DNA of 63,270 nt, the filler included, from Octopus bimaculoides (lineage: Eukaryota), in the NCBI RefSeq assembly GCF_001194135.2. It is 6 parts of 5 records of this genome, joined end to end, with 100 filler letters (N's around TTAATTAATTAA, not from the genome) between each part and the next. Parts side by side here need not be neighbours in the genome. Positions count along the whole stretch, not along the records: positions 30,514 to 52,725 come from NC_068983.1; positions 52,826 to 62,158 come from NC_068983.1; 4 more parts are not named here. One strand, given 5' to 3'. The position numbers were made by a program, and so were the translations under genes. The notes below the pieces were generated by a model, which did not search any database, was not told the origin of the DNA, and saw only the letters and a list, made by a program, of their open reading frames with translations. Every line of letters starts with the position of its first letter. Position 1 is the stretch's first letter. This document shows positions 40,130 to 58,432 of the stretch, in pieces.

Positions 40130-40352
40130 TTCATTGATAATAAATTCAGGAGAGATTTGTTTGACCGTTGACTGAACACTATTCAATTTTTTTTCTCCGT
40201 GTTTTTCTCCTTGTCTCCGTATTCTTTCTGTTGAAGAGCGTAGCTCGAAACGTCAAAGACTTTCCGTATTCCCGAGCGTCATACTAATATATACTTTTGT
40301 TATTTACACCACCTGTCCTCGTCTGTTGTTATTATTTGTATATTCTCCCATA
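40130..40352 (+). mobile_element. Short non-autonomous hammerhead-bearing repeat (PLE terminal-repeat or retrozyme-like), copy 1
   Basis: About 150 bp shared with 58270-58432 (TGTTTTTCTCCTTGT...HHR...CCCGAGC..ATACTAATA...TTTACACCACCTGTC.TCGTCTGTTGTT...ATTCTCC) ending in (TA)n. Outer boundary approximate. Confidence 0.7.
40223..40259 (+). ncRNA. Minimal type-I hammerhead ribozyme with variant core CUGUUGA
   Basis: TCTTT-CTGTTGA-A-GAGC(GTA)GCTC-GAA-ACGT-C-AAAGA: stem I TCTTT/AAAGA, stem II GAGC/GCTC, palindromic ACGT stem III, GUC cleavage triplet. Confidence 0.7.
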
Positions 40353-41319
40353 TATATATATATATACATATACATGTACATATACATATACATATGATGC
40401 TCAGTATAGAAAATACGTAGTAGTATTCAAATGATATGAACTCACACTCCGAAGTCTTTACTGAGAGCTAAGTCCGCAGAGTGGCTATAAGAAGAATCCA
40501 GATGAACTGATATGGAGATAGTGATACAAATAAACACCTTTGGGCTTGATATATAAAATACACACACACACACACACACACACGCTTGTATGTACATACA
40601 TACATACATACATACATACTGGGAGAGAGAGGGAAAGAGAGAAACAAAAACTGAAGCAGAGAGTTATTATTTTGGGTTTCCCTCATACCTAGTTTGTTAT
40701 TAGAAAGATCGCAAAACATTACGGCAAAATACACTGATCCATTGACATAAGAGGGAAACCGCTGCACCGGAATGCTAAGGGACATAACTTTTCTCCCCAT
40801 GTATTAGAGTTATTTCCCTTGACACTTTTTTTATCGTCAGCAGAAGTAAAAATTCCGAGTGTAGATGACATATAAATTCTTTTAGCTATGTATGTTGCTG
40901 TGTGTTGTGTTCTTGAGCAACACACTTTATTTCACGTCGCTCCAATTCACTCAACTGCAGAAATACCATCTCGGACCTCATACCCTTGACCTCGCGGAAC
41001 ATTGAGAATGTGACGGCTGGAAATAAAGACGGGTAGAGTAACACTCGGCTAGTACTTATTTCAGTTGAGTAGACTAGAATAACGTGAAATGAAGGTCATT
41101 AATCAACGATACAATGGCTTAATCGGTTCAGAAATCGAACCTACGTATTTATTACCGTGAGTCCAACAGCCTAACCGCTAGGTCACTTGAAATATCTCAC
41201 AGCTCGAGTAGTTCTTCATGAAAAAGTCGGGTTGTGACCAAACAGAAAAATGGTTTTGTATATTATATTTATTCACTGATTCTCTAGTCTCGCCTATCCT
41301 CTTTGACAGTGAATAATAA

Positions 41320-41610
41320 AGGTGAAAGCGTGTGGCTACGTGGTTAGGGCATTCAGCTCAAGAACGCAAGGTCATGAGTTTGATTCCTCGCGGCGCGTTT
41401 TGTCTTGGAACAAGACTCTTTATTTCACATTGCTCCAGCCTAATCAGCTGGTCAAAATAAGTAGGACCTGTATTTCAAAGGGCCAGCCTTCTCACATTCT
41501 GTGTCACGCTGAATTACCCTGAGAAGCACGTTAAGGGTACGCGTGTCTGTGGAATTTTCAGCCATTTGCACATTAATTTCACAAGCAGGCTGTTCGAGTG
41601 ATCCACCCGT
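41320..41610 (+). mobile_element. SINE family C variant
   Basis: Same head and core with tail TCAAAGGGCCAGCCTT.TCACATT.TGTGTCA.GC.GAAT; an inverted homolog lies at about 56165-56420. Confidence 0.7.
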
Positions 41611-43196
41611 CGATAAACTGGCACATCCGCAAGTTTAATAAGAGAAGGACTGATTTTTTTACTAGATAAATCATTTTGAGAAAATATTTTTAAAACTACA
41701 ATAAAAGATGTATATGAAAGTGATAGGACAGTTGGATTAAACGACTAATATTCTAAAATGAATTCAGTTTATGATTGACACGTCACAACTTGTCAAATCT
41801 TGTGACGCAAATTTGCTTGTAATTTACCCTAAAGATGTCATCATTGTCATCAGTGCTTATCAAATAACATTACCGTTGACATGATAGCTATTATTTCATT
41901 ACCAGAGTAAGTAAGCTAAGTACTGGGAAATATATATAAATAAAGAAGAAAGTAATTGCAACAAAGATGGTATATAAATCAAGCTGACGTGACAAGGTAT
42001 CTAATGAACGATTAAGCTTATCAAGAAAAGGTGTTGACATTTGTGTTTAGTGTCTATAATAACAGCAAAACTTCAGCACAAAAGATTAGGTGACAAATAA
42101 AATAAGCATTCGCAGAAAAACAGACCTTGACATTAAACACCTCCCATACATAAATAAGTGTCAGCATATTCAAATCGTGGAAGAGAAGAAAGCTAACGTG
42201 GAATAAAAGATGAAACGGGGAACAAATATTAATGGACAGCTAATATTTTTTTTTTTTTTTTTAGTATAAATAGGAGATAACTCCAGACGTGTTTTAGGAT
42301 CTAGCTTCCTCAGCAGAGTATGAATGTTCTGTGGTCATACAATATACCACATTCAAGCTTTTAGAAGATTATTTTGACCGCAGTATTTATTTAATTAAAA
42401 CTCATCCGTTGAATACACACACACACACACACACACACACATATATANNNNNNNNNNNNNNNNNNNNNNNNNNNNNNNNNNNNNNNNNNNNNNNNNNNNN
42501 NNNNNNNNNNNNNNNNNNNNNNNNNNNNNNNNNNNNNNNNNNNNNNNNNNNNNNNNNNNNNNNNNNNNNNNNNNNNNNNNNNNNNNNNNNNNNNNNNNNN
42601 NNNNNNNNNNNNNNNNNNNNNNNNNNNNNNNNNNNNNNNNNNNNNNNNNNNNNNNNNNNNNNNNNNNNNNNNNNNNNNNNNNNNNNNNNNNNNNNNNNNN
42701 NNNNNNNNNNNNNNNNNNNNNNNNNNNNNNNNNNNNNNNNNNNNNNNNNNNNNNNNNNNNNNNNNNNNNNNNNNNNNNNNNNNNNNNNNNNNNNNNNNNN
42801 NNNNNNNNNNNNNNNNNNNNNNNNNNNNNNNNNNNNNNNNNNNNNNNNNNNNNNNNNNNNNNNNNNNNNNNNNNNNNNNNNNNNNNNNNNNNNNNNNNNN
42901 NNNNNNNNNNNNNNNNNNNNNNNNNNNNNNNNNNNNNNNNNNNNNNNNNNNNNNNNNNNNNNNNNNNNNNNNNNNNNNNNNNNNNNNNNNNNNNNNNNNN
43001 NNNNNNNNNNNNNNNNNNNNNNNNNNNNNNNNNNNNNNNNNNNNNNNNNNNNNNNNNNNNNNNNNNNNNNNNNNNNNNNNNNNNNNNNNNNNNNNNNNNN
43101 NNNNNNNNNNNNNNNNNNNNNNNNNNNNNNNNNNNNNNNNNNNNNNNNNNNNNNNNNNNNNNNNNNNNAGAGAGAGAGAGAGAGAGAGAGAGAGAG

Positions 43197-57173: not shown

Positions 57174-57813
57174 TACAGTTTTTTATATGTGTATTTTTAT
57201 ATGTAGGTGTGTGCATGAGTTGCTTATATAAAAAGAGACCTGTTACTGTTTTATCTATGAGCTTTCTCAACCCATGAGTTAAAGTTTTAAAACAAACTTA
57301 CATTTATATTAATTAACTATTTATTTACCATTAATTAATTTATTCTGGACATGCATGATTTCTCTTTAATTTAAAATTGCATTTTGTCTCAAGATTGTTT
57401 TTGATTTTATGCAACACGATATTTATGTCATTTCTATTTTCAATTTTAATTTTTATTTGTATTTTATTTTCTATTTGCATATTTACTGTCTCAACTTGCA
57501 TACTTCTGAAAGTCTGTTAGTGGAAACAACCAATCAAATTCAAATGTGTATCTGTCAATGTGAATTATATCAAATTATAAATTATATGTACAACCTCAAT
57601 TCTTATTCCATTCTGGATCACGACTGCTTGATGAACTCTGAGTAGCAGATTTTTGTGATATTTTTGAAATGTTTTTGCAGATTTGATAATAAAGTATATA
57701 TAAAGTAACAAACCGAGGAAAAGAGATCCTTCAAAGGAGTGTGTTAAACATCCAATTCACTAGTATGTCAATTGAATACCATATAAATATTGGTATAATG
57801 CAATTACAAAGAT

Positions 57814-58200
57814 AAATTGAATAGAAAGATACTATTGGCAATCTAATAATATATTTATATTATAATATTACATGATATACTATGAATGTAATATAACATA
57901 AACAGCTATTAAAAAAACATAAAAAGCCAACAAATTGTTTTGACTTATATACATTTTCTGATATACATACACAATAAAAGTTCCCTTATATATAAATCAC
58001 TTCAGGGTCATAGTTTAAAGATAGACGAAATTCCGTCTATATTTAAACCATGACCCTGAAGTGATTTATATATAAGGATACTTTTTTTTCATAATTGTTC
58101 ATGTTATATATATTATGTTATATTACATTCATAGTACATCATGTAATATTATAATATAAATAAATTATTGGATTGTCACTAGTATCTCTCTATTTAATTT
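57814..58200. repeat. Long imperfect palindrome, 387 bp
   Basis: Inner arms 57984-58027 and 58034-58077 (44 bp, 2 mismatches, 6-nt loop); outer arms 57814-57900 and 58114-58200. Confidence 0.9.
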
Positions 58201-58264
58201 ATATATATATATCTTTATATGTGTGTGTATATATATTATATATATATACACATATATCTTTTTC

Positions 58265-58432
58265 TCTCCTTGTTTTTCTCCTTGTTTCTTTCTGTGTTCC
58301 TTTCTGTTGAAGAGCATAGGCTCAAAACGTTAAAGACTTTCTCTATACCCGAGCATTATACTAATACATCCATTTGTTGTTTACACCACCTGTCTTCGTC
58401 TGTTGTTTTTTTGTGAATTCTCCTATATATAT
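58265..58432 (+). mobile_element. Short non-autonomous hammerhead-bearing repeat, copy 2
   Basis: Colinear homology to 40200-40352. Confidence 0.7.
58299..58336 (+). ncRNA. Second copy of the CUGUUGA hammerhead (G12 mutated to A)
   Basis: CCTTT-CTGTTGA-A-GAGC(ATAG)GCTC-AAA-ACGT-T-AAAGA, with flanks homologous to 40200-40350. Confidence 0.6.

Follow-up and report, generated by a model that had tools for sequence, protein, structure and literature searches.

Hammerhead motifs with U at core position 6 and the family that carries them

The window analyzed here is a stretch of 63,270 nucleotides, filler included, from Octopus bimaculoides (assembly GCF_001194135.2), in which two members of a dispersed repeat family each carry, on the plus strand, a minimal type I hammerhead ribozyme motif with U in place of A at core position 6 (U6). 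Copy 1 (40161 to 40349, plus strand) is the 5'-truncated 3' end of a high-copy family, as delimited by a jump in sequencing depth and by loose read ends. It contains a pyrimidine-rich tract (40186 to 40222) that varies in length among copies (indels at 40186, 40187, and 40213), directly followed by the hammerhead motif (40223 to 40259), and it ends at a (TA)n-type microsatellite (40350 to 40394), likely its target or tail, which the 3' loose ends of other copies also enter. Copy 2 (58259 to 58423, plus strand), defined by alignment, belongs to a second subfamily, is likewise 5'-truncated but shorter, has the motif at 58300 to 58335, and is flanked on either side by TA-rich microsatellite; its letters upstream and downstream agree with common family variants and loose ends. 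The copies are 82.6% alike over 167 columns (E 7.5e-42) and lie 18 kb apart, each solitary and with its own start point, that of copy 2 being the equivalent of 40188, ~27 nt further in than that of copy 1. Both end ~95 nt beyond core position 17, in (TA)n, and no third copy was found in the window. The repeat length of about 150 bp given in a preliminary description of this DNA was too short, as copy 1 spans ~189 bp and the family extends at least 162 nt farther upstream; an upstream motif of the family has no match in the window.

In copy 1, the motif is made up of a 5-bp stem I (TCTTT at 40223-40227 and AAAGA at 40255-40259), a first core box reading CTGTTGA (40228-40234, with C3 at 40228 and the T of position 6 at 40231), an additional A (position 9.1) at 40235 that is absent from the preliminary description, a 4-bp stem II (GAGC/GCTC) with the 3-nt loop GTA, GAAA at 40247-40250, the palindrome ACGT at 40250-40253, and a GUC site with C17 at 40254, after which the cut is predicted. 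The box of copy 2 (58304-58310, with C3 at 58304) is identical and its stem II is also 4 bp long, with the 4-nt loop ATAG; stem I has just 4 bp, G12 is replaced by A (58324), and position 17 is U (58331). Judging by these letters, the copy 2 hammerhead is probably inactive. Both copies and the family as a whole depart from the hammerhead consensus C3 U4 G5 A6 N7 G8 A9 at position 6; the remaining consensus (G12 A13 A14, A15.1-U16.1, and H17) is present in copy 1 and in the family consensus, and copy 2 deviates from it at G12. Stems I and II, with the G10.1-C11.1 pair, can be formed with 5 and 4 bp in copy 1 and with 4 and 4 bp in copy 2, and their pair probabilities are 0.54-0.65 and 0.85 in copy 1 and 0 in copy 2. 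Sequence and descriptor thus agree with the preliminary description on two motifs with CTGTTGA and U6, on 4-bp stems II with the loops GTA and ATAG, and on the palindrome and GUC site of copy 1; the 5-bp stem I claimed for both holds for copy 1 and falls to 4 bp in copy 2. The core-variant motif is confirmed in both copies.

The descriptor, of the generic minimal type with position 6 left free and written after the motif had been seen, matches copy 1 only in the whole window and both copies once G12A is allowed; in 500 dinucleotide shuffles of the window, the same post hoc descriptor has no match. A search of the window against Rfam gave no hammerhead at E values up to 5 among the matches listed (150 of 152 low-scoring ones), and none was obtained for the local stretch at E values up to 10. 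The energy models do not favor a hammerhead fold (z 0.02 and -0.94 for the two short folds), contrary to the preliminary statement that the motifs fold as one. An alternative register, in which UUGAAGA would supply an A6 core, was rejected: it would shorten stem II to only 2 bp and place two surplus bases ahead of G12. We also considered that U6 might lock the RNA into an inactive hairpin through UGUU-AACG pairing. This pairing occurs in the minimum-energy fold, but its G5-C15.2 pair has a probability of only 0.23. Further, the open core is equally rare in the folding model with A, C, or G at position 6 (probability 0.002-0.004), and the gap between the active dimer and the dimer minimum is 13-15 kcal/mol whichever base is at position 6, the median gap for 92 natural A6 motifs being 24.6 kcal/mol. 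Because the folding model is unable to discriminate position-6 variants, the inactive-hairpin idea was rejected.

Variation within the family was followed by comparing public sequencing runs with copy 1 at 80% likeness, so that copies less than 80% alike to copy 1 are invisible and contigs under-report differences near their ends. Eight of the 24 listed runs were used, namely three runs of raw RNA reads (X21, X22, and X23; ~6% of each sampled) and five contig runs; X18-X20, with small word shares, are not among the eight. Depth rises from 11.8 (X1) and 50.8 (X7) in the single-copy flank to a summed contig depth of ~1-3 million from ~40160 onward, where loose ends (30 letters each) show that the family continues upstream with other sequence. 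Summed contig depth is itself no copy number; crude bounds are ~1,600-90,000, and the copy number is probably in the thousands. A contig under a second organism label has no difference from copy 1 over 40161-40345 and runs 162 nt further upstream; copy 1 is thus an almost unmutated member truncated at 40161. In two sets of RNA reads, 1079 of 2074 and 615 of 1432 are at least 99% alike over the core stretch. The family is young.

A complete table of differences over 40200-40272 at a 1% threshold, available for four runs (X3, X15, X22, and X23), shows T>C as the only change at 40231: 0.43% of contig depth in DNA run X3, 31 of 1972 raw RNA reads in X22 and 15 of 1370 in X23 (1.1-1.6%), and 0 in X15. 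T>A does not reach 1% in any of the four. Position 40231 is absent from a broader table at a 2% threshold, among the 40 of 50 rows listed, and other listed positions fully account for the T>A counts (1 and 2) of the two DNA runs, X1 and X7; in RNA run X21, with the same share of rows listed, one T>A site is not attributable to a position. RNA editing back to A6 was rejected, as the RNA reads at this position give U>C at 1.1-1.6% only. U6 is common to both subfamilies, and we conclude that this non-canonical base is fixed, being the state of the whole family and of nearly all its copies. The tabulation of position 6 proposed in the preliminary description therefore yields no canonical A6 consensus, and its suggestion that U6 was already in place when the family spread, instead of arising by decay, is supported by the lack of T>A at 1% in the four runs.

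Outside the window, a control pattern with positions 6 and 7 left free gave 116 matches in 115 loci (few lineages, duplicates included), with A at position 6 in 110, T in 3, C in 2, and G in 1. A single T6 match (L071) resembles a true motif, and its look-alikes (L020 and L029) read A6. A Fisher test of the 110/6 split against one family (p = 0.06) is not meaningful and was not used. The U6 pattern, the only one searched for in viral contigs, has no match there; 114 metagenome loci carry the motif, none resembling the family beyond it, and one match in prokaryote genomes is due to chance.

Of the departures seen in copy 2, C17U characterizes a subfamily (7-39%, depending on the run). G12A is an uncommon change (1.1-1.6% in three runs) that falls in a CpG, and decay of copy 2 after its insertion is therefore probable. 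A sub-lineage with an additional U4A change (1.8-5.8% in six runs, 0.5% in X15) has also spread. The stem covariation that the preliminary description proposed to look for did not appear: no compensatory change reaches 1% within the family, and the stems of this young family hardly vary. Sites varying by at least 5% in X7 number 2 of 37 inside the motif versus 11 of 148 outside (p = 1.0), and 1 of 36 inside when position 17 is left aside (p = 0.47); because variability is alike inside and outside (p = 1.0), these counts neither demonstrate nor exclude that the motif is under selection.

Likeness to Penelope-like elements and to described hammerheads

The architecture of the motif points to Penelope-like elements (PLEs), as the preliminary description had proposed. 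The features of the PLE minimal hammerhead are all present (A40235 between positions 9 and 10.1, the palindrome at 40250-40253, and no helix III of its own), and so is every element of its published consensus but A6, namely A9.1, G10.1-C11.1, a palindromic 15.2-16.2, an NUH site, and a U-rich 5' side. The family is also PLE-like in having its hammerhead close to the 3' end (C17 is 95 nt away from (TA)n), in variable 5' truncation, and in its microsatellite target. In two of the outside loci (L064 and L006), a GAGC/GCTC motif with A6 sits 250 and 292 nt, respectively, behind GIY-YIG-like matches; the open reading frame (ORF) of L023 has no significant match. Among the outside motifs, the second stem I pair is kept in 85%, compared with 42% after shuffling (53 distinct motifs from few independent lineages). 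Taken by its sequence features, the repeat is likely the 3' pseudo-long terminal repeat (pLTR) of a Penelope-like retroelement or a derivative of one. In one outside locus (L044:605-688), two A6 minimal hammerheads adjoin each other on opposite strands, in the inverted order that has been described where PLEs insert.

We compared the family with described systems. The closest are the minimal hammerheads of metazoan PLE pLTRs (described by Cervera and De la Pena 2014, PMC4209133), which are alike in type I topology, a short stem I, the 9.1 base, G10.1-C11.1, a palindromic 15.2-16.2 without helix III, a U-rich 5' side, and mostly solitary truncated copies. They differ in that the representatives in Fig. 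S3 of that work all have A6, its descriptor required A6, and the core variant reported there is U3-A8, whereas the octopus family has U6 fixed; further, stem II is 4 bp long in the octopus family versus 7-8 bp in the Schistosoma examples, and no cephalopod is among the rows examined (PMC4209133). A natural pyrimidine at position 6 is known from the A6C hammerhead of phage Bcep176, whose activity is lowered but not abolished (Perreault 2011, PMC3088659; Naghdi 2020, PMC7151607). That base is C rather than U, and it belongs to a single phage motif with measured cleavage, as opposed to thousands of animal repeat copies known from sequence. The octopus PLEs Hydra-1_Obim and Naiad share the (TA)n preference, with a 3' hammerhead in Hydra and none in Naiad, but the core of Hydra-1_Obim is a canonical CUGAAGA with a real helix III, unlike that of the U6 family (Craig et al. 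2021, PMC8557442). In the supplement of that paper, where some matches may be hidden by line breaks, five short family motifs gave only two, and both seem to fall in coding sequence that is unrelated. Animal non-LTR retrozymes (Cervera and De la Pena 2020, PMC7229834; Li et al. 2026, 10.64898/2026.07.22.740005) are likewise short hammerhead repeats without coding sequence, for which mobilization by PLE enzymes has been proposed; their definition calls for active hammerheads in tandem units and for circular RNA in abundance, whereas the octopus family is known from solitary copies and three junction reads. A 2026 octopus repeat annotation (PMC13282606) makes no mention of ribozymes in its main text and one supplement.

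A natural U6 hammerhead family was not found in the literature searched by title, abstract start, or term counts; the collection of Lunse et al. 2017, which may hold U6, lies outside that search. This is reportedly the largest collection of PLE hammerhead variants. PMC11662667 and PMC2704196 each have one A6U or CUGUUGA mention alongside a small-ribozyme or hammerhead topic. We conclude that the U6 core is a genuine variant of a known motif, shared across the family and of putative function.

RNA reads and competing explanations of the U6 core

The preliminary description had proposed RNA ends at 40254/40255 as a sign of cleavage. No end pile-up or coverage step is seen there in X21-X23, for which the tabulation of molecule ends has no entry; with fragmented libraries and ~6% of each run, this is a weak test. 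The raw RNA reads are evenly split between strands. Read-through of scattered monomers would produce this pattern whether or not they can be cleaved. Tandem or dimeric copies, also asked for earlier, are absent from the window and may have left a trace in RNA: 3 of 3168 compared reads, from two starts, join the family 3' end back to 40161, two of them with a (TA)n tail between, which points to forms that are tandem or circular. In this comparison, a circle closed without a seam would go unnoticed. Further, a 2-nt loss at 40255, directly behind the predicted cut, occurs in 55 of 2396, 32 of 1863, and 59 of 1292 reads (1.7-4.6%) of the three RNA runs and in 0 of 5 contig runs. Because contigs under-report indels (an insertion at 40223 has a depth of 18-85 in DNA contigs), an expressed genomic copy is the simpler reading of this loss. 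In X21, 268 RNA reads share one loose end before 40242 (98% agreement; sites 40242 and 40246/40252), which resembles family sequence near 40161-40186 and likely marks one well-expressed copy without the pyrimidine tract and the first core box. Use of the pyrimidine tract as a splice acceptor at the core AG was rejected, there being no such joint or loose end among those listed.

On balance, we lean toward the reading that the copies are the 5'-truncated ends of a young, abundant PLE-like repeat with a crippled ribozyme, the U6 present in nearly all of them having been carried along by amplification. One founder element would have acquired A6U and been copied by PLE reverse transcriptase and GIY-YIG endonuclease into TA-rich sites, a process that would not have needed efficient self-cleavage; what remains of the motif may survive owing to the youth of the family or to a role of the hairpin in signaling the end. 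With U6 in place of A6, the hammerhead is predicted to cut poorly or not at all. The natural A6C motif has a kobs below 0.1 per min (PMC3088659), and in another, fast hammerhead, A6C lowered the rate at 0.3 mM Mg2+ from 0.30 to 3.6e-6 per min (PMC7151607). In a full mutant scan, CUGA-turn mutants were all low in activity except for a C3-G8 swap (PMC9901934). In PLE minimal hammerheads, monomers show no activity and even dimers cut slowly (PMC4209133), octopus PLEs favor (TA)n targets, and Naiad PLEs reach high copy numbers without canonical hammerheads (PMC8557442).

Several points weigh against this reading. A PLE protein match was found in just 2 of the 115 outside loci, Pfam supports one of three such proteins (L064, below the Pfam cut-off), and no reverse transcriptase gene linked to the family was found, nor any ORF beside either copy. 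Apart from U6, every core base and both stems are kept in the consensus, which fits selection without being significant, and the common subfamily changes sit at tolerant places (C17U, one extra loop-II base, and the distal stem I pair). A crippling effect of U6 would be deduced from A6C rates and a general statement on mutants, the literature searched holding no A6U rate, and A6C itself is rescued: 0.18 is kept in Mn2+, with recovery at 1-10 mM Mg2+ (PMC7151607). Finally, the weakness of the RNA end test extends to the molecules themselves, as isolated monomers are not expected to cut. Slow or Mn2+-assisted dimer cleavage is possible.

A second view is that U6 is a tolerated, tuned-down core, whose slow dimer cutting in tandem copies, assisted by Mn2+ or by an element protein, suits the element; we hold this to be a serious but rather doubtful alternative. 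The intact remainder of the consensus core and stems, which common changes avoid except for U4A, speaks for it, as do the natural A6C motif that still cleaves and prefers Mn2+, the reads joined to 40161, and the 2-nt loss behind the predicted cut in all three raw RNA runs and no contig run. It is opposed by the lack of covariation, of a significant excess of conservation, and of an end pile-up, by the spread of the U4A sub-lineage, and by the chance that the 2-nt loss is an expressed genomic copy under-reported in contigs. The stronger version, in which selection maintains the U6 hammerhead as a deliberately slow ribozyme gated by dimer formation and by metal or protein, with the 2-nt loss as an in vivo cut-and-rejoin scar, appears unlikely to us. 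The earlier proposal that the family uses its variant core likewise finds no support in the sequences compared, given no cleavage signal, no compensatory change at 1%, and no extra conservation.

That the family is a non-LTR retrozyme, with a tandem unit of ~200-400 nt that is cut, circularized, and spread through circular RNA, would explain the three junction reads, and the ~200-nt unit from 40161 to the (TA)n tail lies inside the 170-400 nt reported for retrozyme circles (PMC7229834); retrozymes are also reported as derived from PLE pLTRs (10.64898/2026.07.22.740005). However, both window copies are solitary with unequal start points, the junction is confined to 3 of 3168 reads, RNA is equal on both strands, and described retrozyme hammerheads are mostly canonical type I, the minimal ones being tied to PLEs (PMC7229834), which makes this explanation quite improbable. 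We give the least credence to an incidental likeness, or an unrelated repeat resembling a short interspersed nuclear element (SINE). Such a view could draw on the missing Rfam match, the unfavored fold, and the missing reverse transcriptase link, but no shuffle of 500 yields such a motif, a near-identical A6 motif occurs in repeats of other animals with the second stem I pair well above its level in shuffles, and natural A6 motifs score no better than the U6 motif in the energy model.

The role of hammerheads in PLEs has been called unclear, one suggestion being mere parasitism of the elements (Craig et al. 2021, PMC8557442). A young, high-copy family in which a change at an "invariant" core base has become fixed amounts to a natural experiment on the need for self-cleavage. 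Should U6 be dead, elements could spread without cleavage even in a lineage that bears hammerheads; should it cut, a base unreported in the literature searched would be tolerated in the core. Further, descriptors that demand CUGANGA miss the whole family, and published animal hammerhead counts may therefore be too low.

A Penelope-like element and other features of the window

The window also contains a broken, nearly full-length PLE on the minus strand (about 22826-26695) with a GIY-YIG domain (PF01541, E 6.6e-5). It has N-terminal PLE-like motifs and a cysteine-rich stretch before the GIY-YIG domain, its reverse transcriptase core falls in an assembly gap, and it carries a 52-nt terminal direct repeat (90%) and (TA)n at its 3' end. 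We take this element to be Neptune-like. It was considered as the parent of the U6 family and rejected, as its 3' end has no DNA match to the family. Its 3' untranslated region (22985-22900, minus strand) holds CTGAGGG followed after ~65 nt by GAAACCGGTA with the palindrome ACCGGT, which may be what is left of an A6 hammerhead whose stem II was long, although in modeling it does not fold as a hammerhead.

A single-frame forkhead gene lies at 29106-30416 on the minus strand (PF00250, E 6.6e-39); its forkhead domain presumably resembles FoxL2. Upstream of it, in an apparently tandemly duplicated stretch, 30733-30695 (minus strand) reads CTGATAA...GAAACCGGTC without a stem II, a motif that is probably due to chance. 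Dispersed SINE-like repeats with about ten more partial matches in the window occupy 39760-40050, just upstream of the unique flank of copy 1, and a fragment of a Tc1/mariner-type transposase helix-turn-helix lies at 44053-44442 (minus strand). A near-perfect 92-nt inverted repeat (93%), the only one of its kind in the window, is found at 57984-58080, ~180 bp before copy 2.

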